Below, one piece after another: positions 129 to 32,885 of a DNA stretch of 55,298 nt. The notes below the pieces were generated by a model. The model saw nothing but the letters and a program-made list of their open reading frames with translations. It was not told the origin of the DNA and searched no databases. Every line of letters begins with the position of its first letter. Positions within the stretch are counted from its first letter, which is position 1. The stretch covers positions 1-55,298 of the forward strand of contig JAHISB010000046.1 of NCBI GenBank assembly GCA_018818425.1, read 5' to 3'. Made by a program: the position numbers and the translations under genes. The stretch is from Patescibacteria group bacterium. GTDB taxonomy: Bacteria; Patescibacteriota; Patescibacteriia; UBA1558; UBA10009.

Positions 129-176
129 ATATTAGACTATTAGACTATTTGATTATTAGACTATTTGATTATTTGA
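129..176. repeat. Six degenerate 8-mer tandem units (CTATTAGA/TTATTTGA) overlapping the rmlD stop
   Basis: atattaga ctattaga ctatttga ttattaga ctatttga ttatttga; same unit family as 20218-20322. Confidence 0.85.
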
Positions 177-1018
177 ATTGACTTTAAATAATCGGCCAAG
201 GCCTCTGGCCAGGGCCTAAGCTTTGGCAGTTTATTATTGTTTAAAGCGGAATATTTTGGCCGCCGGGCTTTCTGGAAAAAATCATGGCCGGAAATCTTTT
301 GAAGTTTGATTTTAATTTTACGCTGTTTAAATATTTCCTCTGCGTAGTCAAACCAGGAAACAGCCCCTTCATTAACCAGATGATAGATGCCGAACTCCCG
401 CTGATTATCAATAAAATTACTTTTAATTGATCGGGCTAAATCTTTGGCATAGGTCGGCTTGCTGAATTGGTCGCTAACCGCTTTAATGACTTTTTGAGTT
501 TGGCTCAATTCCAGCATCTTGTCAACAAAATTGGTCTTGTTTTTTTTGCCTCTGGCAACGGCTCGGCCAAATAGCCACGAGGTTCTGATAATATAATATT
601 TTTGACAATTATTGATGATATTCTTTTCTCCCTGTTCTTTGCTCCGACCATAAACGCTAATTGCCTGAGTTTTATCATCTTCATTATATCCGCTCCCCTT
701 TTCGCCGTCAAAAACATAATCGGTGCTGATTTGCATTAAAGGCAAGTTGAGTTCAGAGGATATCCTGGCTAAATTTAAAGAGCCTTGCGCATTGACTTTA
801 AAAACCGTTTCCGATTGTTCTTCGGCCGCTTCCACGTCGGTAAAGGCGGCGCAGTTGATAATTAATTCTGGCTGGCAGTTTTGAATTTTGACTTTTAGTT
901 CTTCATTCTTTGTGATATCCCACTCCGGCCGATCAGCCACGATCAAATCTTGTTCGCTTAAAACACTGGCTAAATCGCTGCCCAGCATTCCTCCGGCGCC
1001 TAGGATTAAAATTTTCAT
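161..1018 (-). CDS. rfbD: dTDP-4-dehydrorhamnose reductase
   Basis: GAGGMLG Rossmann motif, NCAAFTDVE, ISTDYVFDG, YGRSK, RTSWLFG. Confidence 0.95.
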   Translation of the reverse strand: MKILILGAGGMLGSDLASVLSEQDLIVADRPEWDITKNEELKVKIQNCQPELIINCAAFTDVEAAEEQSETVFKVNAQGSLNLARISSELNLPLMQISTDYVFDGEKGSGYNEDDKTQAISVYGRSKEQGEKNIINNCQKYYIIRTSWLFGRAVARGKKNKTNFVDKMLELSQTQKVIKAVSDQFSKPTYAKDLARSIKSNFIDNQREFGIYHLVNEGAVSWFDYAEEIFKQRKIKIKLQKISGHDFFQKARRPKYSALNNNKLPKLRPWPEALADYLKSIQIIK

Positions 1019-1022
1019 GGTG

Positions 1023-1141
1023 GATAAGTTTAATAAGTTTCGGCCATAGGCCGACCAGCCTTTGGCTGGGAATAAGTTGAATACGTTGAATAAGTTCGCG
1101 AACTGTTCGTGCAGGTTCGTGTCGTTCGTGATTGATTCATG
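1023..1141. repeat. Intergenic tract: 9-mer AATAAGTTG units followed by TTCGTG units, interrupted by a GC-rich double hairpin
   Basis: gataagttt aataagttt [insert] aataagttg aatacgttg aataagttc, then ttcgcg/ttcgtg x3/ttcatg at 9-10 nt spacing. Confidence 0.75.
1041..1070. repeat. REP-like double mini-hairpin, copy 1
   Basis: cggcc-ata-ggccg followed by ccagcc-ttt-ggctgg; second copy at 32812-32870. Confidence 0.8.
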
Positions 1142-1143
1142 AA

Positions 1144-2145
1144 TTAAGTTAAATACTGCTTTTTATAATACTCCAGATACTCGCCGGACTTCAGCGGTTT
1201 CCACCACCAGTCATTATTTTTGTACCAGCGGATGGTTTCTCTGACGGCCTCTTCAAATTTATATTCCGGCTGCCAGCCCAATTTTTTAATTTTAGAAGAA
1301 TCAAGGGCATAGCGTAAATCATGGCCGGGCCTGTCTTTAACTTGTTCAATCATTTTTGAACCAAGGCCCAGTTCGCTTAAAATCAACTTGGTGATTTGAA
1401 TATTCTGCTTTTCCACGCCGCTGCCGATATTATAGACCTGGCCCAACTTTCCTTTGTGAAGCAAAAAATCAATGGCATTGCAGTGGTCTAAAACATAAAT
1501 CCATTCTCTGATATTTTTACCTTCGCCGTATAAAGGCGCTTTTTTATCTTCCAGTAAATTAGTGATAAATAAAGGAATCAGCTTTTCTGGGTATTGGTAA
1601 GGTCCGTAAAAATTACAGGCGTGAGTAACGATAATCGGCAAATTATAAGTTTTAATATAAGAACGGCATAATAAATCGCCGCCGGCCTTAGAAGCGCTGT
1701 AAGGGCTGTTGGGCCGGAAGGGCGACTCTTCGGTAAATTTGCCTTTGGCAATACTGCCGTAAACTTCATCGGTAGAAATTTGAATATACTTGCCGACAGC
1801 AAACTCTTTAACGCCTTCAAGCAGATTATGAGTGCCTAAAACATCGGTTCTAACAAAAGCCGCGGGGTCTAAAATGGAACGGTCCACGTGAGTTTCGGCC
1901 GCATAGTTGATGACAACATCAATTTTTTTAAAGCGAAGCACTTTTTTTACGGTTCTTTCGTCGGCAATGTCCCCTTTGATAAATTCGTAACTGGCATTGC
2001 CTTCAATATCTTTTAAATTATCAAGGTTGCCGGCATAAGTTAACTTATCCAGATTAATTATTTTATAATCTGGATATTTTTTTAAAATATGTCTGATGAA
2101 GTTGGAGCCGGCAAAACCGGCCCCGCCGGTGATTAGTATGTTCAT
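1144..2145 (-). CDS. rfbB: dTDP-glucose 4,6-dehydratase
   Basis: GGAGFAG, DKLTYAGN, AAETHVDRSI, STDEVYG, PYSASK, DRPGHDLRY. Confidence 0.97.
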   Translation of the reverse strand: MNILITGGAGFAGSNFIRHILKKYPDYKIINLDKLTYAGNLDNLKDIEGNASYEFIKGDIADERTVKKVLRFKKIDVVINYAAETHVDRSILDPAAFVRTDVLGTHNLLEGVKEFAVGKYIQISTDEVYGSIAKGKFTEESPFRPNSPYSASKAGGDLLCRSYIKTYNLPIIVTHACNFYGPYQYPEKLIPLFITNLLEDKKAPLYGEGKNIREWIYVLDHCNAIDFLLHKGKLGQVYNIGSGVEKQNIQITKLILSELGLGSKMIEQVKDRPGHDLRYALDSSKIKKLGWQPEYKFEEAVRETIRWYKNNDWWWKPLKSGEYLEYYKKQYLT

Positions 2146-2151
2146 AATCTC

Positions 2152-2218
2152 TATTAATTTTGAATTTCGATTGAATTTTTAATGACTTAATTTCAAAATT
2201 AGGTTATTTCAAAATTCA
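2152..2218. repeat. Heptamer-periodic AT-rich intergenic tract (TTTTGAA / TTCAAAA)
   Basis: Forward units then reverse-complement units; 2192-2218 ttcaaaattaggttatttcaaaattca recurs with one mismatch at 5052-5078. Confidence 0.7.
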
Positions 2219-2267
2219 ACCGTTTGGAGCTATCGCTGATGGCGACTAGTTACGACATGGCGGTCAG

Positions 2268-3527
2268 CTACGTCCCGATCTCCCAGCTGTTTAAATACTT
2301 TACCTGCTCCGGTGTTAATTTGTCGATTTTAACGCCCAGTGACTTTAATTTAAGCTTAGCGATCCTGACATCGGTCTGTTCGGTAACGTCATAAACTTTA
2401 TTCTCCAGTTTTTTATGATTTTTTACCACAAATTCAACGGCCAAAGATTGATTGGCAAAGCTCATATCCATAACGGTTGAAGGGTGGCCTTCGGCCGCTG
2501 CTAAGTTGACCAGCCGGCCGCCGGCTAAAACAATTATTCTTTTATTGTTTCTTAAAGTATATTCTTCCACCAAAGGCCTGACCTCTGCCTTTTTTTTGCT
2601 GATTTTCTTTAAGGCCGGCAAATCTATTTCCACATCAAAATGGCCTGAGTTGCAGACAATGGCGCCGTCTTTCATTTTAAGAAAATGCTCTCGGCGGATA
2701 ACATGAATATCGCCGGTTAAAGTGCAAAAAATATCGCCAAGCAATGATGCTTCGGACATTGGCATTACCCTGAAGCCGTCCATAACTGCCTCTAAAGATT
2801 TTACATAATCTACTTCGGTCACAATTATTTTTGAGCCCAGGCCCCTGGCTTTAAAGGCAAAGCCGCGGCCGCACCAGCCATAGCCGGCCACCACCACTGT
2901 TTTGCCGGCTAAAAGAACATTGGTGGCCCTGATGATTCCGTCTAAAGTTGACTGGCCTGTGCCATAGCGATTGTCAAAAAAATGCTTGGTCTGGGCGTCG
3001 TTAACGGCCACAATGGGATAAAGCAATTTTTTTTGTTCGGCTAAAGCTTTTAATCTGATAACGCCGGTGGTTGTCTCCTCGCTGCCGCCCCATAAGCTCT
3101 TGACTAAGCCCGTGCGCTTTTTATGAATAGTGGAAACCAGATCGGCGCCGTCATCAACTGTGATATGTGGTTTATCGTCTAAAACTTGATTGATGTGCTT
3201 ATAATAAGTCTGATTATTTTCGTTATTAATGGCAAAAACCGGAATGCCAAAATCTTTGACAATAGAGGCGGCTACTTCATCTTGGGTGGATAAAGGATTA
3301 GAGGCGCATAAGCTGACTTTAGCGCCGCCGGCTTTTAAGGTCCTCATTAAATTAGCGGTTTCGGCTGTTACGTGCAAACAGGCGGCCACCCTGACGCCTT
3401 TTAATGGTTTTCTTTTAGAAAAATCATTTCTTATTTCTCTAAGAACAGCCATTTCTTTTTCTGCCCAAATGATTTTTCTTTTCCCCTGAGGGGCTAGCTT
3501 TAAATTTTTGACATCGTGTTTTATCAT
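2268..3527 (-). CDS. ahcY: Adenosylhomocysteinase (SAH hydrolase)
   Basis: [56 protein letters not shown]. Confidence 0.97.
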
Positions 3528-3561
3528 ATTTTTTTTATTGAACTTATTACAAAATTATTTC

Positions 3562-4539
3562 TCAAAAAGTTAAACTGGATTTATAATTTAATTGATATCT
3601 TTTTTTAAATTGATTATAAGTGTAGAAATGATTCTGGGTGCCATAATGCTCTATGGCATAAACAGCCGCTAAGCTGGCGGACTGGCCGATTTCTAACCAG
3701 GGAAATTTAAAATAGCTGTCGGTGATTAAATTCAACCGGCTGGCAACTAAGCCCTTAATCAAGCCTGCCCGATAAGCGTCGCCGCCGCCGGTGGGATCTT
3801 TAGCTAACGTTGTTTTGACCGCGCTGATATTTATTCTCTCCAATTTATTATGCTGATTAATCTCAATTAACGATCCCTGCTTGCCCAACGTGGTTATTAA
3901 AATACCGGCTGACTGCAAAACAACGGTTTTATCGTAATTGGTAATTTTTTGCGTTAAGGCCAGCTCGTAATCGTTGACTACGCAGATGCTGGCTAATTTT
4001 ATGACTTTCCTTAGTTGATTTTTGGTAAATTGAATTATCTGCTGTCCGGGGTCAAAAATAAAAGGTATCTGCCGGCTGTGATAAAAATCGGCCAAATCCA
4101 GCATTTCGTTGGGATTGCTGGGAGAAATAATGGCCAAATCGCCTTTAGCCACCTTGGGCTTTTTGGCATAAAAGCTCATGGCGCCGGGGAAAAAACCGGT
4201 AATCTGATTATCGTTTTTATCGGTGATAATATAGGCCGAAGCCGTCAGGGTCTGTGGATAAATTTTAATGCCGCTTATATCTATGCCCAGCTGGTTAAAT
4301 CTTTCCTGATATTTCTGGAAGTCTTTGCCGACCGCTGAATAAACCACGGGCTTCTCCTCTAGCAAAGATAAGCTGTAAGCAATATTGCCGGCGTTGCCGC
4401 CAAAGGTTTCACGGAATTCCTTAACCGTAAAACTAACGTTCAGCTGGCGAATTTCCGACGGGATAATGTGATCTTCGAACTTTCCCGGAAAATCCATTAT
4501 GCGGTCGTAAGCGATTGAGCCTGAAATTAATATCCTCAT
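3562..4539 (-). CDS. PfkB-family carbohydrate kinase, adenosine-kinase-like
   Basis: GSIAYD, FGGNAGNIAY, FDPGQQ, NDYE, DPTGGGDAYRAG; adjacent to ahcY. Confidence 0.85.
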   Translation of the reverse strand: MRILISGSIAYDRIMDFPGKFEDHIIPSEIRQLNVSFTVKEFRETFGGNAGNIAYSLSLLEEKPVVYSAVGKDFQKYQERFNQLGIDISGIKIYPQTLTASAYIITDKNDNQITGFFPGAMSFYAKKPKVAKGDLAIISPSNPNEMLDLADFYHSRQIPFIFDPGQQIIQFTKNQLRKVIKLASICVVNDYELALTQKITNYDKTVVLQSAGILITTLGKQGSLIEINQHNKLERINISAVKTTLAKDPTGGGDAYRAGLIKGLVASRLNLITDSYFKFPWLEIGQSASLAAVYAIEHYGTQNHFYTYNQFKKRYQLNYKSSLTF

Positions 4540-4544
4540 AAAAA

Positions 4545-4949
4545 TTAAATTAACTCTTTAATGCTGGCGGCAATCCTTTCCTTTTCGTTCTCCTGATAAG
4601 TTTTGCCTGGCCAGGGATGCAGATTATCGTTATTAAACCGAGGGATAATATGAAAATGAACATGATGCACCAATTGTCCGGCGGCTTGGCCGTTATTAAG
4701 AACTAAATTAAAACCATCGGCGCCTACCGCTTCCATAATGGGCTGTGATAGTTTTTGAACCACGACAATCAATTCTTTTAACAAATCGGGTGGAAGTTCA
4801 AGAAAATTATTATAATGTTCTTTAGGGATAACTAAAACATGGCCTTTATTAACGGGATTAATATCCAAAAAAGCTAAAATTCTTTTATCTTCATAAACTT
4901 TTGCCGAAGGCAGCTCGCCTTCAATAATTTTGCAAAATATACAGTCCAT
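4545..4949 (-). CDS. HIT (histidine triad) family protein, Hint-like
   Basis: DCIFCKI, FLDINP, GHVLVIPK, HVHFHIIPR; ATG at 4949 preferred because the longer start lies in a repeat tract. Confidence 0.92.
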   Translation of the reverse strand: MDCIFCKIIEGELPSAKVYEDKRILAFLDINPVNKGHVLVIPKEHYNNFLELPPDLLKELIVVVQKLSQPIMEAVGADGFNLVLNNGQAAGQLVHHVHFHIIPRFNNDNLHPWPGKTYQENEKERIAASIKELI

Positions 4950-4957
4950 AAAGTTAA

Positions 4958-5091
4958 TTACCAAATTCCAAACTCCAAATTACAAACAAATGTCAAATTC
5001 TAATTACCCAAATTCCAAACTTTTATTTGGAAATTTGAAATTCAAAATTGATTCAAAATTAGGTTATTTCATAATTCAAAATTAAATTCAA
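4958..5091. repeat. Heptamer-periodic intergenic tract (CCAAATT units, then TTTGGAA/TTCAAAA units)
   Basis: ccaaatt ccaaact ccaaatt acaa acaaatg tcaaatt ctaatta cccaaatt ccaaac, then tttggaaatttgaaattcaaaattgattcaaaatt. Confidence 0.8.
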
Positions 5092-5508
5092 TTATTTAAC
5101 AACCCCCGCTTCCAGCTCTGCCTCGGTGTATTCAACCTGTTCGTCTTTTAAATTCGGATTGTAGGGGGGCTCTGGATAATTAATCAGCCAGGCCTCTTCG
5201 TCGCCGATATTTTCTAAGCCGGTAGCAACATTATTGGGAATAAACAAACGGCCGGGCTTTTGGGCGTCTAAAACAAATTCCTGCCTTTTTTTATTTTGAT
5301 AAGTAATAATCTTCATTCTGCCTCTGATACAAACATATCTGGCCGCCCTGACCCGGTGCAGATGATAGCCCTTAAAAGCTCCTGGTTTGGCCGCGGTTAA
5401 ATAAACCGCTGTTTTATCGCCGTCTTTAAATAATTCTATTAAAAAACCGTTCTCTTTATTATTGGCATCGAAAGTTTTAACTTTTTTGACTGTTTCTGTT
5501 TTAATCAT
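5092..5508 (-). CDS. RmlC-like/FdtA-like cupin (nucleotide-sugar epimerase/isomerase)
   Basis: GFLIELF, KGYHLH, LFIPNNVATG cupin motifs; near rmlB/rmlD. Confidence 0.7.
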   Translation of the reverse strand: MIKTETVKKVKTFDANNKENGFLIELFKDGDKTAVYLTAAKPGAFKGYHLHRVRAARYVCIRGRMKIITYQNKKRQEFVLDAQKPGRLFIPNNVATGLENIGDEEAWLINYPEPPYNPNLKDEQVEYTEAELEAGVVK

Positions 5509-5905
5509 AGCTATTTAAGTTCAAGTTGAATATGGCATACAGCGCCAAAGCGCCCATAAACGAAATTAGCCAAGAAACAGTGCCCAGATAATTAAGATGC
5601 TGATAAATAAAAAATCCGGACAATATCGCTAAAATTAATGAATTTATTCCCCTGCTCACTCTTCTTTTTTTATCTTCTTCGCATTCTTGAGGAAACCAGA
5701 TAAATAAGAGCCCCGTTATTATAGCTAAAATCAAAAGGATATTCAAATCAAAATAATTGCTGATTAAGCCGGTCTTGAACTGCTCTAAAGAAAAATAAAC
5801 TACAAAGGTTATGGCCGACGCTTTAAATATCAAACCGCAGGATTTTATTAAATATAAACCCAGGCTGTCTGCAAATTTTCTTTTTTTTGATTTTAGAAAA
5901 AACAT
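5501..5905 (-). CDS. Hypothetical membrane protein (about 4 TM)
   Basis: Four hydrophobic segments; ATG at 5905 preferred since the extension to 5950 lies in a repeat tract. Confidence 0.7.
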   Translation of the reverse strand: MFFLKSKKRKFADSLGLYLIKSCGLIFKASAITFVVYFSLEQFKTGLISNYFDLNILLILAIITGLLFIWFPQECEEDKKRRVSRGINSLILAILSGFFIYQHLNYLGTVSWLISFMGALALYAIFNLNLNSYD

Positions 5906-5913
5906 ATCTATTA

Positions 5914-6080
5914 ACACTAATAAATCACTGACAGTCCACAGATGACGCACTGATTGCTCACAGATATCGGCGTGTTATCTAAGAACTATCGGTGCTTCTA
6001 TTTAATCATTGGTGAGTTATCCGCGCGTTATCAGTCGAGAGACCTCGAGTTTATCGAGAGGTGAACCATCCGTGCTTCTA
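5914..6080. repeat. Intergenic tract of CAC(A/T)GA(T/C) units followed by complementary ATC(G/C)GTG-type units, with a nested GC hairpin at 6042-6062
   Basis: cactaat, cactgac, cacagat, cactgat, cacagat at about 11-nt spacing, then atcggcg, atcggtg, attggtg, atccgcg, atccgtg; acctcga-gttta-tcgagaggt. Confidence 0.7.
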
Positions 6081-6083
6081 TTT

Positions 6084-7583
6084 TCAAAAACTGGCTTTCA
6101 GATAATTAAATATTTTACTCATTAATTCGTTAAAAGTCAAAGGCGGCTTATCTAAAGTAACGCTGATTTGCTTAAGCGGAATAATTTCCTTGCTGCCGCT
6201 GAGCTCCGGCGCCGAAATAACCAATCTTAACTTGCGATTTTCAATATCGGCATTATTTAAATTAAACCGGACTTCGCCCGCTTTCCAGCCGTTAATTTCT
6301 TGGGGCGAATGATATTCGGTTATCAGATAATCAACGCCCAAATCTCCGGAAAAATCCCTGAGCTGAAAAATTTCCGGATTAAAAAACTGATTCTGCGAAA
6401 AAGCCAATAAGCCCCTTCCAAAAACCTTAAGGTCATTTTCCGGAATAAAAATATAGTTGGGAACAATTTCGGAAGTGATAAAATAATTTTTATGAGTCTC
6501 GCTGATATCCAGAGTCTGATCGTTGATTTTAACGCTCTGCCGGCCGGCCTCATGGGCGGTTTCAAAACCAAGCCTGGGAATAGTGCTGTAAATTACCGTT
6601 GGTTTGTAAATTAAATCCACAAAGCCGCCTTCATATTCCCGGCTGTCAGCCAGATACAGGCGGTCGATAAAAGTTAAATACTGCTGTTTGGTTTTTATCT
6701 GCCTGGTAAAAATCTCGTCTTCGGCGACCAGTTGAATTTTATAAACGCCTTCGGCTAAATCGGCCAGCTGTAAATTTATATACCTGGGCGCCGAAGCCGG
6801 GTCCAGCTTGCTGATATAGCCGTCATCGTCAAATTCTTCTTCGTAAATTTTATCATTCTGGCCATTGTAAACTTTAAAAGTGAAAAAATCCGGCCCTTCG
6901 CTGCGGTTGATATCCTGAGTTTTAAAAGTAAAATCCAGAACTTCATTCTTAATATAAGTGTAAAACGCATAACCGCCTCTTAAAGTTTTATTCAATTCCT
7001 GATAGTTATTTTGGGGCTGGTAATCGGGAAGCATAAATTTTCTGTCTAAATCATAATAATACGCTCCCACTTTGTCTAAACTATCAAGCTGGTCAAAAAA
7101 CTGGTTGATGGTGATAAAATTTTTGCTTCTCTGCCACAAACTGGCTTCGGCGTTTTCAATAACCGGCCAGTCCAAATTATCCAGCAGCTGATTTTCTAGG
7201 GGCTTAAACTGGTAATGCCACTCGCCTTCCCCAATAGTCTTAAGGCCAAGCTGGATCAGCGGCTGGTTTTTATTCTGATAAATTATTTTAACTTTGGCGG
7301 CAGCAAACTTTTGCGGCAGACGAACATCAAAATAAACCGGGTCTTGTTTAACGGCCTGCCAGTAACTGCCAGAGCCGACGATTTTATTGATTTCCGTCAT
7401 TCTGTTGGCCGGAAACAGATTGGTGATAACCGGCGAATCCTGCGAAAAATCATAAGTAAACTCCAGATGCCCGGAAGGCACAAAATCCAGATAAACTAAA
7501 TAAAATAAACCGATAATCGGTAAAACAATAACGGCTATTTTAGTGATTTTAAATAATTGGCTGAAAAATAACTTGGAATTCAT
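6084..7583 (-). CDS. Hypothetical membrane-anchored exported protein
   Basis: 499-aa ORF, single N-terminal hydrophobic helix, beta-rich soluble remainder. Confidence 0.75.
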   Translation of the reverse strand: MNSKLFFSQLFKITKIAVIVLPIIGLFYLVYLDFVPSGHLEFTYDFSQDSPVITNLFPANRMTEINKIVGSGSYWQAVKQDPVYFDVRLPQKFAAAKVKIIYQNKNQPLIQLGLKTIGEGEWHYQFKPLENQLLDNLDWPVIENAEASLWQRSKNFITINQFFDQLDSLDKVGAYYYDLDRKFMLPDYQPQNNYQELNKTLRGGYAFYTYIKNEVLDFTFKTQDINRSEGPDFFTFKVYNGQNDKIYEEEFDDDGYISKLDPASAPRYINLQLADLAEGVYKIQLVAEDEIFTRQIKTKQQYLTFIDRLYLADSREYEGGFVDLIYKPTVIYSTIPRLGFETAHEAGRQSVKINDQTLDISETHKNYFITSEIVPNYIFIPENDLKVFGRGLLAFSQNQFFNPEIFQLRDFSGDLGVDYLITEYHSPQEINGWKAGEVRFNLNNADIENRKLRLVISAPELSGSKEIIPLKQISVTLDKPPLTFNELMSKIFNYLKASF

Positions 7584-7585
7584 AT

Positions 7586-7708
7586 TAATTTTAATTCTGA
7601 ATTTCGAATTTCGAATTTTGATTCAATTTTGAAATTTTTAATTTAGAAATAATTTCAAAATTCCATCATTAGAAATTCATTCAAAATTCAGAATTCAAAA
7701 TTCTAATT
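7586..7708. repeat. Heptamer-periodic imperfect palindrome (GAATTTT / AAAATTC); the right arm encodes the last residues (RILNSEF) of the upstream gene
   Basis: Left arm aattctgaatttcgaatttcgaattttgattcaattttgaaat aligns to reverse complement of right arm (aattagaattttgaattctgaattttgaatgaatttctaat). Confidence 0.85.
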
Positions 7709-9312
7709 GGATATAAGCTCTGCTCCTTAAAATCCACTATGCTCGGCTGAACCTCCAATTGATGTTGGAAAAAGTAACGTTCGTTGAACTCGGCCAGCAG
7801 CGCATCATGACGGGTAAAGTAAAAGTAATAAACAGGATAGCCGGCTGCGATTAACTGGTAAACTCTCTGATAGTCGTAATCCTTATTTAAGCGGAAAATC
7901 ACCGAGCGGCGCGGAAAAAAAACTTTGTCCATTATGTCTGCTACTATTATAGCATTATCTTCGATTTTAGCGCTGACTTGGCTCTGAATCTGTTCGTAGC
8001 TTTTCAAATTATTGTAGACTAAATAAATGCCTTCGTCCTGCCCAAAATAAACCTGTTGAAAAGAAAAATAGCCCAGCACAATAAATAAAACAGCGGTAAC
8101 AAAAGTTACGGCTAATTTTGACTTCTTTAAAAACTTAAACAGACTGTAGCCGATTAAAGGCAGAATAAACACATAAACAGGCAGCCAGTAGCGGACATAA
8201 GAATTGCCAATGGTTATGGCTTGGGGGTCTGGATTATCGTGGAAACTCCAGCTGCCGTAATAAATTACCAGATAACCGCTGATCAACAAGAACAATGCCA
8301 AATATAAAATTCTTTTTTTATCTTTTTTTAATAAAATGAAAAAACCGGCAATTAAAAATCCCAGCAGTGAGATAATAGACCAGACCGGGAACATCTTTAG
8401 GGTGTAATTATAAAAATTGATTAAAGCGGTTCTGGGCTGAAAGCCAAAAGGCAAAAATATCTTTTCAAATATATTCAAGCTTTGAGTGATGATATCTTTG
8501 CCCTGAAGCTCCAAATCCACGGCATAGCCGAAGGAAAAAATTGACTGATAGTTCTGAAAATTAAAATAAAAAACCGGCGCAAATGACAATAAACAAACAA
8601 TAAATGACAATGCTAAATTTGCCCAGTTGATTTTTTTTCTGTAAATGACTAGAAGAATTATAAATAAAGGCAGTAGCCAGGTTATTTCCGAGGTTCTGAC
8701 CATTAAAGCCAGTCCTATAAAAAATCCGAATAATAAATAAAAGGGAATCTTGGCTGACTTAATGGCTTTGATAAAAAGATACATGCTGATGATCAGCAGA
8801 GCAACAAACAGAACATTGGGCATTAAACTTTTGGTGGCATAATACCACCAGGCAGGGGCGATAAGTAGCAGCAAGGCCGATATAAAAGCAATCTGCTTAT
8901 TAAAAATTTCTTTGATTAATAAATAAAAAAAGAAGATGGCCAGACAAGCAAAAATTATTAAAACAAAAGGAATAACTTTTAAAGTAAAAATTTTAGCTAA
9001 GGTTCCGGCGATCAAGGGAAAACCAATGAAAGTGGCAGGCACAGTGTTATTATTAATTACCCTCATGCTCCGTGGCGCCGCTAAATCATCAGCTATCTGA
9101 TTGGCAGAATCCTTAAATTGCAACTCTGACTGTTTGGCAAAAGTATAGGCAAAATAATAATTGGCAGTTTCATCAGGCGAGTTAAAAATTAAATTATCAT
9201 TGATATTTTTCGGCAGCTGATAAATAGCCAAAAAAGAGTAAACAAAAAAGAAAACTATTATCAGAAATATTAAGCTGATTATCTGCCAGTCTAATTGAAC
9301 TTTGTTTTTCAT
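7681..9312 (-). CDS. GT-C fold glycosyltransferase (ArnT/PMT-like)
   Basis: Polytopic membrane protein with SPDE acidic motif after TM1, LMVRTSE, YVRYWLP and a C-terminal soluble domain. Confidence 0.75.
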   Translation of the reverse strand: MKNKVQLDWQIISLIFLIIVFFFVYSFLAIYQLPKNINDNLIFNSPDETANYYFAYTFAKQSELQFKDSANQIADDLAAPRSMRVINNNTVPATFIGFPLIAGTLAKIFTLKVIPFVLIIFACLAIFFFYLLIKEIFNKQIAFISALLLLIAPAWWYYATKSLMPNVLFVALLIISMYLFIKAIKSAKIPFYLLFGFFIGLALMVRTSEITWLLPLFIILLVIYRKKINWANLALSFIVCLLSFAPVFYFNFQNYQSIFSFGYAVDLELQGKDIITQSLNIFEKIFLPFGFQPRTALINFYNYTLKMFPVWSIISLLGFLIAGFFILLKKDKKRILYLALFLLISGYLVIYYGSWSFHDNPDPQAITIGNSYVRYWLPVYVFILPLIGYSLFKFLKKSKLAVTFVTAVLFIVLGYFSFQQVYFGQDEGIYLVYNNLKSYEQIQSQVSAKIEDNAIIVADIMDKVFFPRRSVIFRLNKDYDYQRVYQLIAAGYPVYYFYFTRHDALLAEFNERYFFQHQLEVQPSIVDFKEQSLYPIRILNSEF

Positions 9313-9321
9313 AGTTAGGTT

Positions 9322-9380
9322 ATTATAACAAATAATTTTACCTAAAACAACTTATAAATTTAAGATTTTTATGTTAGAAT
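9322..9380. promoter_or_regulatory. Divergent extended -10 promoters, near-leaderless
   Basis: Minus strand TG-T-TATAAT (9330-9322) 9 nt before ATG 9312; plus strand TG-T-TAGAAT (9372-9380) 6 nt before ATG 9387. Confidence 0.6.
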
Positions 9381-9386
9381 ATAGCT

Positions 9387-11495
9387 ATGATTTCTGTTAT
9401 TAAAACCCCGACCTATTTACTGGTTAGTTTAGTTTTGATTGTTCTTAATCTTTTGCCTTTCTTCGACGGCGGTTTAAGGATGATTTTTGGAGTTTTATAT
9501 CTGTTTTTTTACTCTTTAGTTTTAGGCAACTGGCTGTTTATTAAAAACTCAACTGTCTGCAAATTTGTTTTTGGCCTAATGTTTTTATTAATTCTGGCCA
9601 GTTTAATAGGCACGGCCAGCTTTTATCTGTGGCAATTGAATCTGTGGACTTTTTATTTAACCGTTATTATTATTCCCCTGCTGCTTTTACCGATAATTCA
9701 TAAATATCCCCTGATTTTTGAACCGGCCAGATTACAAATAAAACTGGACATCAATCAGCTGATTCTGCTTGTTAGCTACCTGATTCTGGCCATAACCATT
9801 TTTTATCTGCTGTTTGCCCATCAGACCTCTGAAGCCATCAGAACCCCGTGGCAGGTTTTACCCGGCCAGATCTTTTTACTATACTTTCTGGCCACTCTTT
9901 TTCTTTTTGTCTTTCTGATTATTTCCAAAAATTCTTTTAATCTTCTGCTGATTATTATTCATCTTTTTATGAGTTTTTCGGTAGCTTTAATTATCTACCA
10001 GATTGGCTTTGGCTACGATCCTTTTATCCACCGAAAAAACGTTGAGTTGATTCTGGCCAATGGCACTCTGCTACCCAAGCCCTTTTATTACCTTGGGCAA
10101 TACAGCTTGATTATTTTTTTAAAAAATCTTTTAGCAGTCTCGGCCGACTATCTGGATAAATTACTGGCGCCGGCAATGGCCGCAATTTATGCGCCAGTCA
10201 CTATTTATTATGCTTTCAAAGATAACTTCAAACTAAAAACCAGCTATCTTTATCTGATAATTTTAAGCTTATTGGCCTTCCCCTTCACCCATGTTATTAC
10301 CACCACCCCGCATGCTTTATCGGCTCTATTTTTTATCCTGACCATTTTATTTTCCATATATTATCTGGCTTACCCAAAAACTTCTTCATTGCCATTGTTG
10401 TTGATGGCTCTTTTTACTTTAGCTGTCCATCCTCTGGCCGGACTGCCGCTTTTGTTTGCCGTTATTCTGATTCTGTTATTTTTTAAGCATCAAAAAAATC
10501 TTGCCCTGCCCAAAATTTTGCGCCGCGGCATTTTGTGGGAAATATTTTTGCTAGGCTGTTTGGCTCTGCCGGCGGCTTTTATTATTAATTCCCAAACTTT
10601 ATCCCAGCTTAAAGTAAGTTTCAGCTTTAACTGGCTGATTAGCATCAGCAGCTCTGTTTTTAATAATCCCCTCTTTTTCTACCGCCCCTTTATCGCCATT
10701 TACGATTTAATCTACAACTATGCCAATAATCTGGCAGTTCTCTTTTTAATTGTGATAGCCGTGAGCGTCTATTTTTTAAAAACCAAAAAGCAGTTAAAAA
10801 ATTATGTTATCTATTTAATGATTTTTGCCATGGTTTTTATCAACTATTACCTGTTAAAAACCAGCGTTGATTTTTTCAGTCTGATGGATTACGAGCGACT
10901 TAATTATCCCTTAAGAGTTCTGCAACTTAGCTTATTTTCGCTGCTGCCTCTGCTGATCGTGGGCGGCTACTTGTTTTTCCAGAAAATTTTTAAGCAAAGC
11001 TCTTTAATAATTTTGCTGATGGTTATCCTGCTTTCGTTGGGTGCCACCGCTTCTTTTTACCTTTCTTACCCCAGGGTCGATACCATTGCCGAAAGCCATG
11101 GCTACTCCACTTCCATAACCGACTTAAAAACAGTCAATTTTATCGAACTAATTCAAAATAATGAACCTTACATAGTTTTAGCCAGCCAGCCGGTTTCGGC
11201 GGCCGCCTTAAAAGAACTTGGCTTTAAATATTACTATAACGACTATTTCTTTTACCCGGTGCCCACCGGCAATAAGCTGTATCAGCTTTACGAAGATTTA
11301 ATCTACAGCAAAGAAAAAACAGCCGATATTATTGCCACTGTCAGATATTTAACCGGCGTCAATGACATCTACTTAGTCATCAACTCCTACTGGTTCGACG
11401 CTCAAGATAAAATCAAGGAAGAGAAAGAAATCTGCGACAAGTGGTACGCCATAGACGGCAAAAATTTTATTTTCCAGTATGTGAACAACCGCTGA
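9387..11495 (+). CDS. Large polytopic membrane protein, possibly GT-C type
   Basis: More than 15 hydrophobic segments, GYDPFIH loop motif, C-terminal soluble domain. Confidence 0.6.
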   Translation: MISVIKTPTYLLVSLVLIVLNLLPFFDGGLRMIFGVLYLFFYSLVLGNWLFIKNSTVCKFVFGLMFLLILASLIGTASFYLWQLNLWTFYLTVIIIPLLLLPIIHKYPLIFEPARLQIKLDINQLILLVSYLILAITIFYLLFAHQTSEAIRTPWQVLPGQIFLLYFLATLFLFVFLIISKNSFNLLLIIIHLFMSFSVALIIYQIGFGYDPFIHRKNVELILANGTLLPKPFYYLGQYSLIIFLKNLLAVSADYLDKLLAPAMAAIYAPVTIYYAFKDNFKLKTSYLYLIILSLLAFPFTHVITTTPHALSALFFILTILFSIYYLAYPKTSSLPLLLMALFTLAVHPLAGLPLLFAVILILLFFKHQKNLALPKILRRGILWEIFLLGCLALPAAFIINSQTLSQLKVSFSFNWLISISSSVFNNPLFFYRPFIAIYDLIYNYANNLAVLFLIVIAVSVYFLKTKKQLKNYVIYLMIFAMVFINYYLLKTSVDFFSLMDYERLNYPLRVLQLSLFSLLPLLIVGGYLFFQKIFKQSSLIILLMVILLSLGATASFYLSYPRVDTIAESHGYSTSITDLKTVNFIELIQNNEPYIVLASQPVSAAALKELGFKYYYNDYFFYPVPTGNKLYQLYEDLIYSKEKTADIIATVRYLTGVNDIYLVINSYWFDAQDKIKEEKEICDKWYAIDGKNFIFQYVNNR

Positions 11496-11595
11496 CGACA
11501 CAAACCCTCGCTGACTTACCACAAACCGCTGACATCTTTTATTAGCGGTCAGCGGTCTGTCAGTGGTAAGTCAGTGTGGTCAGTGTTAGTCTGTG
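11451..11595 (+). repeat. Direct repeat copy 1 (3' end of membrane gene plus CACTGAC/GTCAGTG palindrome)
   Basis: Aligns with 12372-12509; last 37 nt identical. Confidence 0.92.
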
Positions 11596-24236: not shown

Positions 24237-24368
24237 AAGTTTCAAGATTCAAGTTACCAAGTATCAAGGAAGTAATAAATTATAAGGTCAAAGTTATAAA
24301 AATTATTTACACCTTGAAATTTATCACTTTAATCTTCCTTGAAAATTGACTCCTGAAACTTGAAACTT
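24237..24368. repeat. Heptamer-periodic imperfect palindrome (TTTCAAG / CTTGAAA)
   Basis: Left arm aagtttcaagattcaagttaccaagtatcaaggaag vs reverse complement of right arm aagtttcaagtttcaggagtcaattttcaaggaag. Confidence 0.85.
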
Positions 24369-24376
24369 ATGAAACA

Positions 24377-25525
24377 TTATAGATATTTTTTTAAGATGTC
24401 GACCTTATCGGTTCTTTCCCAGCTAAATTCCGGTTCAGTCCTGCCAAAATGTCCGTAAGCGGCCGTAAGTTGATAAATCGGCCTCAACAGCTGAAGCTGC
24501 TCAATAATTTTGCCCGGGCGGAAATCAAATGCTTCTTTAATAATTTCTTCCAGTTTTTCATCAGTTACCTTGCCGGTTTGAAAGGTATCGACATGGACGC
24601 TGGTTGGTTCGGCCTTGCCGATAACATAAGCAATCTGCACTTCGCATCTTTCGGCTAAGCCGGCGGCCACCGCATTTTTAGCTACGTAGCGGGCCATATA
24701 AGCGCCGGAGCGGTCCACCTTGGAAGGATCCTTGCCCGAAAAACACCCGCCGCCGTGTCGTCCCATGCCTCCGTAGGTATCAACAATAATCTTTCTGCCG
24801 GTTAAGCCGGTATCGCCCTGCGGCCCGCCGATAACAAACCGGCCGGTCATATTAATATAAAATTGGGTTTTTTCGTCTAAGTAATCGCCGCAGACAGGCT
24901 TAATTACTTGTTCCAGTATGTCTTGGCGCAGCTGTTCTAAAGAAACCTTTTCGTCATGCTGGGCTGAAATAATAACATTCTGCAAACGCACCGGCTTATT
25001 ATTTTCGTACTCTACAGCCACTTGAGACTTGCCGTCGGGCCTTAAATAATCAAGAAGGTTATTTTTGCGCACTTCTGTCAGGCGCCTGCTTAACTTATGC
25101 GCCAGCATAATCGGCAAAGGCATAAGTTCTTCCGTTTCACGGCAGGCGAAGCCGAACATCAGCCCCTGATCGCCCGCTCCCTGCTCCTCTGTCGATGATT
25201 TATTTACTCCTTGGGCAATATCAGGCGACTGTTCGTGGATAGAAACTAAAATGCCGGCGTGTTCAGCATCGATGCCGTAAGCGGGATCAGTATAACCAAT
25301 GTTATGCAAAACCTCCCGCGTAATTTTTTGAACATCCACGTAGCCCTTAGTGGTTATTTCTCCTCCCACAATAACCAAGCCGGTCGTGGTAAAACTCTCT
25401 ACCGCTACATGGGAATTGGGGTCCTGGGCAATAAGAGCATCCAGAACCGCATCGGATATCTGGTCGCAAATTTTATCCGGGTGGCCTTCGGTAACTGATT
25501 CGGAAGTAAAAATATACTTGCTCAT
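24377..25525 (-). CDS. metK: S-adenosylmethionine synthetase
   Basis: [42 protein letters not shown]. Confidence 0.98.
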
Positions 25526-29835: not shown

Positions 29836-30530
29836 TGAGTATTTTGATCAAGCAAACTTTCAACGTATTCCATTCTCTCTAAAACATCTTGCTTATTCTC
29901 AAGGGGAATTTTACCTAATAAAACTTGCAGATACTTCAGGGCCTCTGAATAATTGCCGGTTTCTATTAAATAATCGGTAAAGGGCTGGAGCAGCTGATAA
30001 TCGTTATTGGTATTTTTAAGCCCTTCTAAATAAACCGATTTTATTTTATCCGATTTTTCAGTTAAGTAATTCTGATAAAGCTTAGTTAGATTATAATAGG
30101 TAAAAAAATAAACGTTGTTTATATCAACGGCCTTTAAAAAAGCTTCTTCGGCGTCTTCGTATAAGCCCAATTTAATATAAATATTGCCGATATTTAACCA
30201 GGGCGAACTGTTGGCGGGAATTATTTCCCAGGCCTTGGCAAAGTACTCAATGGCTTTGGAAGCATTGCCTAACTCTCTTTCAATGTTGCCTAAATCCATA
30301 TAAACCTCGTATTGATTGGGAAATAACTCAAGCATTTCAAAATCTTTAGCTTTTCTTTCCTCCAGTTCCTGAATTTTTTCCGGCGGAAGATTAACCTCTA
30401 AAAAATATTCCGGCTCGTTGCTAAATTGCCGCTTATTAAAGCTGAAAAAAATCGCCGCTATAGCCAATAAAGCAATTAATAATAGAGACAGAATTAAATA
30501 AATTTTTTTATTTTTAATTAATAGCTTCAT
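29832..30530 (-). CDS. Membrane-anchored TPR protein
   Basis: N-terminal TM; LGNI...LG....AIEYF..A and LG.YEDAEEAF.KA repeats. Confidence 0.8.
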   Translation of the reverse strand: MKLLIKNKKIYLILSLLLIALLAIAAIFFSFNKRQFSNEPEYFLEVNLPPEKIQELEERKAKDFEMLELFPNQYEVYMDLGNIERELGNASKAIEYFAKAWEIIPANSSPWLNIGNIYIKLGLYEDAEEAFLKAVDINNVYFFTYYNLTKLYQNYLTEKSDKIKSVYLEGLKNTNNDYQLLQPFTDYLIETGNYSEALKYLQVLLGKIPLENKQDVLERMEYVESLLDQNTQ

Positions 30531-32790
30531 CTTTTTGCTTTAAGATTTCTTGATATCTTGTATAAGCATGGCTGCTGGCTGCCGGCATAATCTCGGCCCA
30601 CTTTTGCAAAGTTGCTAAAGCTTGGTCATATTGCCCATCGGCCGCTAAAAGATCGATTAGATCGTTCCAATAATTAAAATTTTGCGGCTCTATGCTGGTA
30701 AGCTGTTCAAACAGATAAATTAATTTTTTAACATCTTGCTTTTCTTCGCAATAAGCTATAATATCCTGCATCTGGCTCACCGCCATAAACTGATACCCCG
30801 AATCAATCAGCTTATCGTACTGTTCGTGCACTTTATCCAGATTACCCATATTTTTATAGACCACCGCTAAATAGTAATAAGTTTGAGACAATCTATCATT
30901 TATTTCAACGGCCTGGTTTAAATACTCTAAAGCCTTTTCGGGCTGATTGCCGAATAAATAAAGCTGGGCTAAAGTCCATACCGGCCTAAGCCTGCCCGGG
31001 CTTAATTCATTGGCCTTTTTAGCAAATTTTATTCCCTGATTAAGATACTCTATTTGGGGCGATAGTTCCAGTAATAAAGAGTAATTCCTGGACTGAATAT
31101 AATAAAGAAACATATTATTAGGATCTAGTTCAATAGCTTTATCCATCCACTCAATGGCTGTTTGCAAATCCTCGATCTCTTTCTCCTGCGGAGCAATTTC
31201 CATATTCATGCCTATCATTTCATTAAGAGAAGTGGAAAGAAGTATGGCCGGATCTATTTTATTGACGGTTATATTATAGACCAGGCGATAGCCGTCTACT
31301 GATTCAGTATACTTATTAAGTTTTCCATTAATAAAAGCATCGTAAACATAGATATTAGCTTTAACCTCCGGCAAGTTAACGGTGAAAAATAAAATACTAA
31401 ATCCTACAACAACCAGGGGGATAGATAAGTATGGTGAAATTTTTAAATTTTGAAAAACTCTTTTACCAGGCAACACTTCGGCGCTCTCTTGATTATTCGA
31501 ATAAATAAAGGCAATAAAGGCCAGTAGTAAATAAAAAGGTATTAAACTATTCAATGAATCAAAGACAAAAATATTTTGGAAGAAATAACTAAAAAATAAA
31601 AGAAATAAAACAATAAAGGTAGCTGAAGACATCCTGTTTCGGCCGTGCAAATCATAAAGGTAATAAAATATTATTCCAAAAATAGCTAAATACAGCAAGA
31701 GTCCAAAAATTCCCATAGTCGCTGCCATATCAACTAAAGTATTATGAGCGCGGTCGAACCACACTTCGTTGCCTGAATAGTCATAAAAATCTCCTTCAAA
31801 ATACTGGCTGAAAACTATCTGATAATTCTCCGGGCCAACGCCCAGCAATAAATTATCCCTAAAACCCTTTAAGCCCCAGTTCCAGGCATGGAGCCGCGTT
31901 TGCACAGTACTATCGTTTAAGGAATAGCTTGTTAATCGTCTTAACCAATAGTTTCCCTCAACAAAATTGGTTGATCTCAATGAATACAAAATACCGACTA
32001 AAATCAATAAAATTACGCTGCCGACAACTAAAATCTTTATGGCCTTCTGCTTCCAAACTTTTAGCCATAAAGCGATGATAATAAAAGCCGGCAAAGAAAA
32101 GAAAAGAGCTAACAAAGCGCCTCTGGTGCCGGTTAAAATAAGGACAATAAAATCTAAAATAAATATTGAAAGATAATAAAGCTTCCATTTTAAACCGGCT
32201 TTTTCCACTATAAACAATAAAGCAACAAACAAATGAAAGAGCATGTAAGAGGCCAGATAAGCGGCATTGCCAACAGTTCCGTTAACCCTTTCCAGGCCTG
32301 ATTGAAAAGTAAAGGATAAGCCCAGTCTTTGGCTCAAAGAATATAAGCCGATTAGTAAACTGACGAATAAAGTGGCATTCAAAATTATGTTCCAGACTTT
32401 TTTATTATTAAAAACAGAAGCTAAAACTATAAACCAGACAAAATAATGCAAATAATTAAAGGTGCCAAACATTCTCTCCCAATTGCCCCACCAGCTTCTG
32501 GCAAAGCCCTGGCCGGTAAAGGTGGTTAGCAGCATTACCGCAAAAAAGGCGGAAACGGCCCAAATTAGAACTGATTTTTTAGGACGATACTCCGGCTTAA
32601 ATAAAGCTAAAATAAGATAAGCGCCAAAAACTGCCTCTATCAATATTCTTAGAATTAATGTCTTCTGAATTATATAAGGAAAATATGAATGAGGAATAAC
32701 AATCAAGGGCGCTAAAACAACTAAAAGACTGCCGCCGATTATGATAAGCTTTAATATTTTCTCTAAAAGATTATTGTTAACTTGTGACAT
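30514..32790 (-). CDS. O-antigen ligase / O-oligosaccharyltransferase-like protein with C-terminal TPRs
   Basis: RVNGTVGNAAYLA, TGTRGA, R...W, LGVGPENY, DRAHN; ATG 32790 preferred since the extension is encoded by a repeat. Confidence 0.88.
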   Translation of the reverse strand: MSQVNNNLLEKILKLIIIGGSLLVVLAPLIVIPHSYFPYIIQKTLILRILIEAVFGAYLILALFKPEYRPKKSVLIWAVSAFFAVMLLTTFTGQGFARSWWGNWERMFGTFNYLHYFVWFIVLASVFNNKKVWNIILNATLFVSLLIGLYSLSQRLGLSFTFQSGLERVNGTVGNAAYLASYMLFHLFVALLFIVEKAGLKWKLYYLSIFILDFIVLILTGTRGALLALFFSLPAFIIIALWLKVWKQKAIKILVVGSVILLILVGILYSLRSTNFVEGNYWLRRLTSYSLNDSTVQTRLHAWNWGLKGFRDNLLLGVGPENYQIVFSQYFEGDFYDYSGNEVWFDRAHNTLVDMAATMGIFGLLLYLAIFGIIFYYLYDLHGRNRMSSATFIVLFLLFFSYFFQNIFVFDSLNSLIPFYLLLAFIAFIYSNNQESAEVLPGKRVFQNLKISPYLSIPLVVVGFSILFFTVNLPEVKANIYVYDAFINGKLNKYTESVDGYRLVYNITVNKIDPAILLSTSLNEMIGMNMEIAPQEKEIEDLQTAIEWMDKAIELDPNNMFLYYIQSRNYSLLLELSPQIEYLNQGIKFAKKANELSPGRLRPVWTLAQLYLFGNQPEKALEYLNQAVEINDRLSQTYYYLAVVYKNMGNLDKVHEQYDKLIDSGYQFMAVSQMQDIIAYCEEKQDVKKLIYLFEQLTSIEPQNFNYWNDLIDLLAADGQYDQALATLQKWAEIMPAASSHAYTRYQEILKQKDEAIN

Positions 32791-32796
32791 AATGTT

Positions 32797-32885
32797 AAGG
32801 ATTGAGGATTTCGGCCAAAGGCCGACCTGGGCCAAAGCCCATAGACCTATGGCTCGAAGCCTTTGGCTGGAAGGATTGAGGATTT
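32797..32885. repeat. REP-like hairpin copy 2 with a 30-nt nested insert, flanked by a 15-bp direct repeat
   Basis: aaggattgaggattt [cggccaaaggccgacc tgggccaaagcccatagacctatggctcga agcctttggctgg] aaggattgaggattt. Confidence 0.85.

Follow-up and report, generated by a model that had tools for sequence, protein, structure and literature searches.

The 23S rRNA of Leptospira, like that of Coxiella, contains intervening sequences (IVS) that carry an S23p/23S_rRNA_IVP open reading frame (ORF). Other small palindromes lie between genes: the Correia/NEMIS elements of Neisseria, the enterobacterial repetitive intergenic consensus (ERIC) and the Rickettsia palindromic elements, grouped here with miniature inverted-repeat transposable elements (MITEs), are palindromic intergenic repeats that are processed on mRNA. 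For cyanobacteria, Elhai reportedly described in 2008 short tandemly repeated repetitive (STRR) heptamers with small dispersed repeats nested in them. Here we report on periodic palindromes, built from degenerate short tandem units, that fill gene junctions in the left 33 kb of a 55,298-base contig from a Patescibacteria genome. This contig (C18) was analyzed whole and is called the window below; the genome, a member of the Candidate Phyla Radiation (CPR), comprises 1.23 Mb in 54 contigs at a completeness of 94.5%. Contigs of this host genome are labeled C and genomes G, each followed by a number. We consider it probable (roughly 0.6) that the periodic palindromes are mostly ORF-less copies of an IVS-like cassette family that, in this CPR lineage, occupies spacers separating protein-coding genes.

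In the passages of the published account that deal with the Coxiella 23S IVS, the insertion carries an ORF of the same family as the one found here, with two to three tandem heptamers ahead of it, and has a 28-bp terminal inverted-repeat stem that is cut by RNase III (PMC4990558). Insertions in CPR rRNA, according to the parts of PMC11270868 that concern them, carry genes for 23S_rRNA_IVP and GIY-YIG proteins; many of these insertions are short and have no ORF. The elements studied here resemble these rRNA IVS in their terminal inverted repeats, which form a long stem around an optional 23S_rRNA_IVP/TIGR02436 ORF, in the coexistence of ORF-less and ORF-bearing forms, in the tandem heptamers beside the ORF and in having GIY-YIG as an alternative cargo in CPR. 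The window sites themselves are ORF-less; the ORF is present in 7 genes elsewhere in the genome and in 26 of its relatives' genes. Unlike rRNA IVS, the sites and cassettes examined lie between protein-coding genes or beside tRNA genes and not in rRNA helices, their arms are long tandem arrays, they have GxxExxY as a second cargo family and a leader in common, and they reach dozens to hundreds of copies per 1.2-Mb genome. Excision by RNase III would here be assumed by analogy.

Comparison with other small repeats gave a similarly mixed picture. As with MITEs, nonautonomous palindromic copies of about 100 nt outnumber the gene-bearing form and are scattered over gene junctions, with some copies in frame within ORFs, as is the case for Rickettsia palindromic elements. 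Unlike MITEs, they have no linked transposase and their filled form encodes no known one, the arms consist of 7- to 8-nt tandem units, and the families are many and small (5 to 35 copies). Their ends are AT-rich repeats, at which target-site duplications are not demonstrable. The GC-rich mini-hairpins nested in the arrays resemble repetitive extragenic palindromes (REPs), which, like REPINs, are associated with Y1 transposases (REP-associated tyrosine transposases, RAYTs), and the genome has three Y1_Tnp genes; however, the AT-rich periodic palindromes themselves are not REP-like, and the hairpins beside a Y1 gene differ from the common module. With cyanobacterial STRR, the elements share intergenic heptamer arrays, some of them in inverted pairs, and small nested hairpin repeats. 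They differ from STRR in belonging to another phylum, in their octamer and 11-mer periods and in their tie to small-ORF cassettes, of which we found no description for STRR.

The full element consists of two inverted arms of degenerate 7- to 8-nt tandem units, with a 5' leader and a small ORF in the center. The host genome encodes seven TIGR02436 four-helix-bundle (4HB) genes and four GxxExxY (PDDEXK_3) genes, none of them on C18. Most of these genes are flanked on one side by forward units and on the other by reverse-complement units, with a unit specific to the locus, and C9:30646 has a complete palindrome on both sides of the cassette gene. An earlier description of the window, made from its letters alone (the sequence-only reading), had linked such tracts to TIGR02436 and GxxExxY genes of other genomes and had stated that the window contains neither; both statements held. 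When the flanks of 21 testable cassette-family genes were compared with those of 1054 other ORFs, 8 exceeded the 95th percentile of complementarity (binomial p 4e-6), namely, 4 of 6 4HB, 2 of 4 GxxExxY, 1 of 8 small GIY-YIG and 1 of 3 Y1 transposase genes. As 6 of the 10 testable 4HB and GxxExxY genes lie above this percentile, the arms belong chiefly to these two families. A whole-genome arm test on all 1091 ORFs called by a crude longest-ORF method, which also supplied the gene maps outside the window (1116 ORFs, 86% coding), gave a modest excess, with 21 ORFs above the 99.5th control percentile against 5.5 expected and several ordinary genes among them. Likewise, TIGR02436 matches (E <= 0.001) were found in 17 of 30 relatives of the same order, and 17 of the 25 4HB genes with enough flank (16 genomes) exceeded the 95th percentile of a mismatched-flank control, 7 of them the 99th. 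The arm unit was again locus specific, and the period-7 signal around these genes was 8.1-fold.

A leader, GAAA[A/G]GCGATT, is located at or just 5' of the ATG, irrespective of reading frame. This pattern matches the genome 25 times, compared with about 5 matches expected from base composition by our own arithmetic, and 16 of the matches directly precede cassette-family ORFs: 5 of the 7 4HB genes, all 4 GxxExxY genes, 6 GIY-YIG-type starts and 1 Y1_Tnp gene. It is also present at 11 of the 26 4HB genes of relatives, which belong to several families of the order. One 5' signal is thus common to four unrelated ORF families; the small GIY-YIG genes and the one Y1 transposase gene carry it mostly without arms. 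At the seven cassette loci searched with Rfam, only one tRNA and two subthreshold small-RNA matches were obtained, and nothing for the leader. A diversity-generating retroelement, in which the 4HB protein would act as Avd, was also considered and rejected, as the 94.5%-complete genome has no RVT_1 match.

ORFs and arms appear to be inherited together. Among 33 4HB loci, 50% of the pairs with a protein similarity of at least 0.5 (n = 22) had related arms, versus 2 to 4% of more distant pairs. A Mantel test of ORF against arm similarity gave 92 of 2000 permutations (p ~0.05), a value that is confounded where the 120-nt flanks include conserved neighbors. The paralogues on C35 and C50 have leader, ORF and right arm in common at 65 to 80% identity, and the left arm of C50 is replaced by GC-rich hairpins.

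The evidence that palindromes without an ORF derive from such cassettes comes from aligning the two. Six empty copies of the GAATTTC family, including sites 2152 and 7586 of the window, align half by half with the left and right arms of the 4HB cassette C29:10420, in which leader and ORF fill the center between the aligned halves. Site 20218 and the single arm at site 129 likewise align with the arms of the 4HB cassette C35:23999, site 20218 half by half with the left and the right one; both sites also match the right arm of C50:7856 and that of G009:C66, a cassette from another genus. Sites 11486 and 12411 are paralogues of each other and copies of the palindrome beside the GxxExxY gene C23:18915. 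At 2152, 7586 and 20218, these alignments bear out one of the suggestions of the sequence-only reading, that the palindromes are the joined flanks of small gene cassettes now absent. The empty form, two arms and a short loop of about 90 to 130 nt in total, occupies co-directional gene junctions and far outnumbers the filled form. Its families comprise 5 to 35 related spacers and are multicopy, dispersed and short, with terminal inverted repeats. All six examined empty GAATTTC-family copies have the same orientation relative to transcription; the filled copy is oriented the opposite way.

Short-period arrays are abundant throughout the genome. In the 816 spacers of at least 40 nt, Tandem Repeats Finder (TRF) detected 551 arrays in 378 spacers, compared with 78.4 arrays in 73.5 spacers in 10 dinucleotide shuffles. 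The arrays cover 18,345 nt (1,844 nt in shuffles), or about 11% of intergenic DNA (18.3 of 169 kb). The excess was largest for periods 7 (111 versus 8.1) and 8 (101 versus 11.2) and their multiples 14, 16, 21 and 24, and period 11 was prominent as well (66 versus 8.8). Period-7 arrays are about 7-fold denser in intergenic DNA (113 in 172 kb) than in coding DNA (98 in 1054 kb). Spacings between identical 5-mers also peaked at 7 (4.7-fold), 8 (5.3-fold) and 11 nt (2.7-fold), plus harmonics, and the 11-nt spacing had harmonics of its own at 22 and 33 nt. Adjacent arrays that are reverse complements of each other fell into two groups by gap, with 38 pairs less than 60 nt apart, 2 at 60 to 300 nt and 16 at 300 to 1500 nt; same-orientation pairs with a gap below 60 nt numbered 2. 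This bimodal distribution was the first hint that the loop can hold something the size of an ORF. Perfect or near-perfect heptamer or octamer arrays were also seen inside ORFs of the window, at 16959-16983, 19373-19392 and 52203-52230.

Filled and empty alleles of one junction were found outside the window. At the rpsG-fusA junction, compared in 29 genomes, 8 spacers measure 16 to 34 nt and 15 measure 54 to 206 nt; 12 of the latter contain TRF arrays, and some are clear palindromes. In three genomes (G022, G018 and G004), a 4HB gene lies between arms at this junction, and in three more, other ORFs do. The spacer of G021 has the AAAGTT/AACTTT arm type of the filled G022 and G018 alleles around an ORF-less loop of about 55 nt. 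As the 4HB genes of G022 and G018 are orthologous and that of G004 belongs to another subfamily, the junction has been occupied at least twice. Empty copies are gained and lost between genera. The sequence-only reading had proposed a search for such alleles at junctions of the window itself, and there the result was different. The rmlD-rmlB-ahcY-kinase-HIT block and its surroundings are syntenic in nine genomes of the family, with spacers that are unrelated in sequence; the rmlB-ahcY junction, for example, measures 8 nt in one relative, contains unrelated hairpins of about 100 to 135 nt in others, and reaches 1.5 kb with other genes.

Some of these relatives' spacers have contents of their own. 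The 1.5-kb ahcY-rmlB spacer of one relative (L082:10570-12140) holds, by reading of the DNA, several ORFs, one of which is apparently small and Cys rich (zinc-ribbon-like); in another relative, the same junction (L083:1025-1310, about 270 nt) holds what by the same kind of reading is an apparent degraded copy of that ORF. At the ahcY-rmlB junctions of G007, G008 and G010 (L087, L088 and L089), we observed a different dispersed hairpin family with the stem GGGCAAGAAAAATTT... and a variable GC-rich center, which in G007 also occupies the rmlB-rmlD junction. These three genomes have no TIGR02436 match above the family cutoff.

The 12 sites of the window are listed in Table 1 together with other loci. 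The units named in the sequence-only reading (CCAAATT, GAATTTC/T, TCAAG-type, GATTAAG, TCTAATAG and CACTGAC) are all present, and the named spacers are filled with short-period repeats, detected by TRF at a score of at least 30 or, at sites 2152, 5914 and 12411, which lie under that score, visible by eye. An inverted second arm had been described for many of the sites. By an arm score that treats G:T and A:C alike, with 40 shuffles per site, this was upheld at eight sites, where no shuffle reached the observed score, but not at sites 129, 1023, 4958 and 22272. RNAfold z scores (200 shuffles) agreed, ranging from -8.3 at 12411 to -0.2 at 4958, with the exception of site 1023, where the low value is due to GC-rich mini-hairpins. 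The proposed grammar of about three heptamers followed by a 4-nt slip is conserved, as the step GAATTTC-GATT-nAATTTT, in the family of sites 2152 and 7586 and their paralogues, but it is not a general rule.

Table 1. Periodic repeats and palindromes of the window, by site, and comparable loci elsewhere in the genome
Site	Position	Feature	TRF arrays (period, nt)	Arms	Pairs (Watson-Crick)	Shuffles (of 40) reaching arm score	RNAfold z
	1-128	Terminal 128 nt of a multicopy palindromic element abutting the array of site 129; contig breaks inside					
129	129-177	Octamer array (TATTAGAC / TATTTGAT), 5.5 copies by TRF	130-176 (8)			3	
1023	1023-1096	GAATAAGTT array with GC-rich double mini-hairpin module (REP-like) at 1040-1069	1070-1096 (9)				-3.3
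2152	2168-2222	Imperfect GAATTTC-family palindrome, rmlB-ahcY junction		2168-2192 + 2197-2222, 4-nt loop	25 (84%)	0	
4958	4961-5091	CCAAATT-type array (4961-5030), then GAATTTC-family right-arm segment (5040-5091)	4961-4987 (7); 5040-5060 (11)			5	-0.2
5914	5919-6002	Imperfect palindrome, CACTGAC / CACAGAT-type units		5919-5954 + 5966-6002	36 (72%)	0	
7586	7589-7700	Long AT-rich GAATTTC-family palindrome	7599-7703 (7/8/11)	7589-7639 + 7647-7700	48 (94%)	0	
11486	11484-11601	CGCTGAC/CACTGAC palindrome, 3' of ORF 9387-11495	11548-11576 (11)		49	0	-7.2
12411	12414-12510	CACTGAC palindrome, 3' of ORF 11662-12390			45	0	-8.3
20218	20218-20324	Octamer palindrome (ATTATTTG / TCTAATAG units)	20218-20324 (8/16/32)	20220-20249 + 20272-20301		0	
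22272	22278-22370	GATTAAG heptamer array, then TGAAAAT/TCAATGAAAAT units, ugd-uxs junction	22278-22370 (7/11)			31	-0.6
24237	24237-24368	132-nt imperfect palindrome, TCAAG-type units, epimerase-metK junction	24338-24380 (7/9)	24237-24300 + 24306-24368	62 (76%)	0	-5.5
32797	32797-32884	60-nt module of four GC-rich mini-hairpins at 32811-32870 (by sequence reading)	32846-32873 (14)			0	
	C42:23192; C29:10450; C28:12031; C35:24023; C46:40022; C54:10986	Cassette genes between inverted arms (examples)					
	C43:53064; C42:37456; C17:18544	GC-rich mini-hairpin modules (examples)					

The sites had been described as diverse in sequence, each with a unit of its own. This does not stand, as 11 of the 12 have paralogous copies elsewhere in the genome at 72 to 93% identity over 60 to 115 nt; the sole near-unique site is 24237, with a single BLAST match elsewhere. 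Site 129 is a single arm of the unit family of site 20218, 84% identical to 20271-20320 on the opposite strand, and site 20218 matches 24 genome loci over at least 60 nt. Positions 5052-5079 of site 4958 are 96% identical to 2192-2219. Site 5914 has paralogues on C36, C23, C39, C19 and C1, and related repeats continue to position 6083. The palindrome of site 7586 occupies the entire spacer and enters the start of the next ORF; site 22272 consists of tandem arrays only. Site 1023 shares 92.6% identity with C17:18544-18623 (81 nt) and 90% with C31:2557-2619 (63 nt; G000, locus L184), a copy that lies within an ORF. That copy, a GC-rich double hairpin with GAATAAGTT units, is in frame, and the ORF looks pseudouridine-synthase-like from a reading of its translation.

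Two kinds of repeat are nested in, or abut, the AT-rich arrays. The GC-rich mini-hairpin modules combine TCGGCC-loop-GGCCGA and CAGCC-loop-GGCTG in either order (22 and 28 motif matches in the genome) within AT-rich tandem arrays, usually with the identical unit on both sides. Direct repeats of about 8 to 14 nt flank them, which are possibly just neighboring array units. At site 32797, the four-hairpin module lies between exact 14-nt direct repeats AAGGATTGAGGATT (32797-32810 and 32871-32884), and its end modules are the same as those at 1040-1069 and many other loci. One of the three Y1_Tnp genes, the IS200-like C15:32741-33292 (G000), has the cassette leader upstream; the 160 nt 5' of it contain two copies of a GC-rich hairpin, CCGACAGCC-AGG-CTGTCGG, whose sequence differs from the common module. 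The second repeat is the larger palindromic element of window positions 1-128. It is identical at the ends of C54, C8 and C11, related ends occur on C35, C29, C31, C38, C39 and C50, and a 139-nt unitig of the element has a depth of 285, compared with about 38 for its neighbors; the assembly breaks in it. At several contig ends, this element ends exactly at tandem arrays. Two GC-rich, long, nonperiodic hairpins were observed at 35605-35710 and 50557-50637 (RNAfold z -6.5 and -4.3), the former with a near-perfect stem of about 17 bp.

On the cassette reading, the arms, once placed, would grow, shrink and drift by replication slippage, and the arrays would then serve as landing pads for the GC-rich REP-like mini-hairpins and the larger palindromic repeat. 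Following the precedent of the Coxiella 23S rRNA IVS with its ORF, RNase III might cut the transcribed hairpin. A broader reading is possible but doubtful in our view: the elements could represent an undescribed class of selfish cassettes in CPR, in which unrelated small ORFs with one leader reside in, or home into, the centers of dispersed periodic palindromes in mRNA spacers, and of which the rRNA IVS, on record since 1990, would be a special case that landed in rRNA. The ORFs of such a class would, just as tentatively, include an Avd/S23p-like four-helix bundle, a PD-(D/E)XK GxxExxY protein, a GIY-YIG protein and even a Y1 transposase. On this reading, the cargo protein may recognize the arms, given that arm unit types follow ORF subfamilies in different genomes.

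Several observations weigh against deriving the palindromes from cassettes. A sequence match to an arm of the 11 cassette genes (E<=1e-6) was obtained for only 98 of the 816 spacers, whereas 378 contain arrays, so that most arrays have no demonstrated cassette ancestry. No leader remnant is found in any window site (0 pattern matches on C18). The spacers of relatives at window junctions range from 4 nt to 1.5 kb with unrelated content, none of these junctions holds a 4HB or GxxExxY gene in the nine relatives examined, and the relatives' syntenic region has no period-7/8 excess (1.1- to 1.3-fold in 8.2 kb of spacer). An MgtC gene and a DsbA-like gene, both ordinary, also lie between inverted arrays, and the 16 long-gap inverted pairs may be partly due to chance. 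The paralogous cassettes appear from their DNA identity (about 75%) to be old, with no recent movement in evidence. No transposase is linked to the arms, and the proteins encoded in filled forms are 4HB or PD-(D/E)XK-like. Strong folding is not specific to arrays, as the median RNAfold z was -2.35 for spacers with arrays (n = 209) and -2.01 for those without (n = 259; 468 of 553 spacers in all). At the RNA level, 103 strong hairpins at co-directional junctions had no sense-strand G:U excess (131 G:T versus 173 A:C). Arm-to-arm covariation, which the sequence-only reading had proposed to look for, was weak in two paralogue families (three double-sided pairs in either family, a level also reached by 57 of 500 and 16 of 500 shuffles, respectively), a level within the range that the tool warns can arise without structure. 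An RNA-level function of the hairpins is unsupported.

The arrays could instead have arisen de novo by slippage in AT-rich spacers, with template-switch inverted duplication producing the palindromes and small ORFs invading later; the invaders would prefer hairpin or cruciform centers, and the empty sites would be targets and not relics. We regard this as unlikely, even though it accounts for the variety of units (the 111 period-7 arrays have 62 distinct heptamers, and the 101 period-8 arrays have 56 octamers), for the many arrays without a sequence tie to a cassette and for a period-7 excess that is common among distant CPR contigs (5.5-fold) and lacking in other phyla (1.45-fold and flat across spacings). 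Within the window, a perfect TGAGGAC array of 4.4 copies (15755-15785) occupies a variable loop of ORF 15555-16445 without altering the protein length relative to four homologues. Such in-ORF heptamer arrays without a change of length point to a local generating process that is independent of cassettes and weigh against cassette ancestry as well. Two of the leader-bearing families are nucleases (GIY-YIG and PD-(D/E)XK), which fits homing into cognate palindromes. In addition, the relevant sections of one study report an over-representation of heptamers in the intergenic DNA of many bacteria, with arrays over-represented in Nostoc and Xanthomonas, and raise the idea of polymerase slippage (PMC4692102). 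Independent growth is, however, hard to reconcile with dispersed families in which nonperiodic features, namely, the GATT step and TTAGG motif, keep a constant order, as this indicates copying. Furthermore, related ORFs have related arms at different loci and in different genomes, and the right arms of C35 and C50 have diverged about as much as the ORFs.

If the hairpins were selected RNA elements that process or stabilize polycistronic mRNA as barriers to RNase III or exonucleases, the cassette genes would be incidental. Hairpins with a score of at least 30 are indeed found mainly at co-directional junctions (22 to 27%, versus 12.5% of divergent ones), the host genome encodes RNase III, these junctions hold other hairpin families in other genera, and the empty GAATTTC copies examined are oriented alike. 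The part of PMC4990558 on RNase III cleavage of the Coxiella IVS stem is in line with this account. Nevertheless, we judge it improbable, as the strand bias in the hairpins tends in the direction opposite to a G:U excess and covariation is weak; moreover, several relatives lack any spacer at the same junctions, so the hairpin is dispensable. The proposal of the sequence-only reading that these are structure-defined, sequence-free sites analogous to integron attC, into which a tyrosine recombinase inserts promoterless cassettes, is hardly tenable, and the layout refutes it in large part. Next to small ORFs there are indeed imperfect hairpins of about 100 nt, and the genome has three Phage_integrase-family genes, but these recombinases could be XerC/D. 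Unlike attC-associated cassettes, those found here are solitary and scattered in operons over 10 contigs and are not arrayed beside an integrase; each ORF lies between two arms instead of before one site, and the arms have a tandem period and group into sequence families. Ordinary intrinsic terminators or promoters would explain the location between genes and the T-rich sequence after some palindromes, yet this explanation is very unlikely. In a consensus scan of window positions 1-13000, no palindrome contained a terminator-like site, that is, a short GC-rich stem with a U tract, and promoter-like sites in spacers were few and weak, which gave no support to either role. A canonical GC-rich terminator is separate from the palindromes, at 12574-12596, 64 nt past the palindrome at 12414-12510, and palindromes lie inside conserved co-directional gene strings.

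The left 33 kb of the window is mostly a co-directional string of sugar-nucleotide and methyl-cycle genes, including rmlD, rmlB, ahcY, a PfkB-type kinase, a HIT protein, glycosyltransferases, ugd, a UXS-like gene, an epimerase, metK and an O-antigen-ligase/TPR protein. Among named records, MetK is closest to loci of metagenome-assembled genomes (MAGs) of Patescibacteria/Candidatus Magasanikiibacteriota (77 to 80% identity), and the second-best matches are from Bacillota (62 to 67%); a cyanobacterial origin, which the heptamers might suggest, was rejected on this basis. Rfam gave no match in the window at gathering score, and so no rRNA, and ARAGORN found nothing there. A Vsr very-short-patch repair endonuclease gene is located at 12978-13394 (TIGR00632, E 1.8e-37), and 503 nt (34379-34881) between a sugar transferase gene and ORF 34882-35604 contain no ORF of at least 90 amino acids and are not repeat-like. 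The sequence was found in groundwater metagenome runs. In Logan unitigs of the probable source run, breaks across window positions 1-20000 coincide with or adjoin repeat sites. Two further runs (X2 and X3) contain identical sequence at a depth of 1 to 3 in contigs of 280 to 570 nt that bridge none of the repeat sites, and the short contigs of a relative of about 90% identity in run X4 bridge none of the junctions; the joints recorded in these runs are repeats from elsewhere. No near-identical strain was found; in a metagenome scan with the kinase, the best match was 69% identical.

A full-text literature search yielded no description of such elements in CPR and, as far as the texts it covered extend, no account of the genomic context of GxxExxY or TIGR02436 genes. 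The 4HB and GxxExxY genes are among the commonest unexplained small multicopy genes of CPR, Bacteroidota and cyanobacteria. If the palindromes are indeed mostly empty cassettes, both families would gain a concrete genomic context and a testable biology, and the 35-year-old question of where rRNA intervening sequences originate would gain a candidate source outside rRNA. It would also follow that MAG assemblies of such organisms break at these elements. CPR genomes, at about 1 Mb, are usually considered streamlined; in the genome studied here, nearly half of the spacers carry an array.

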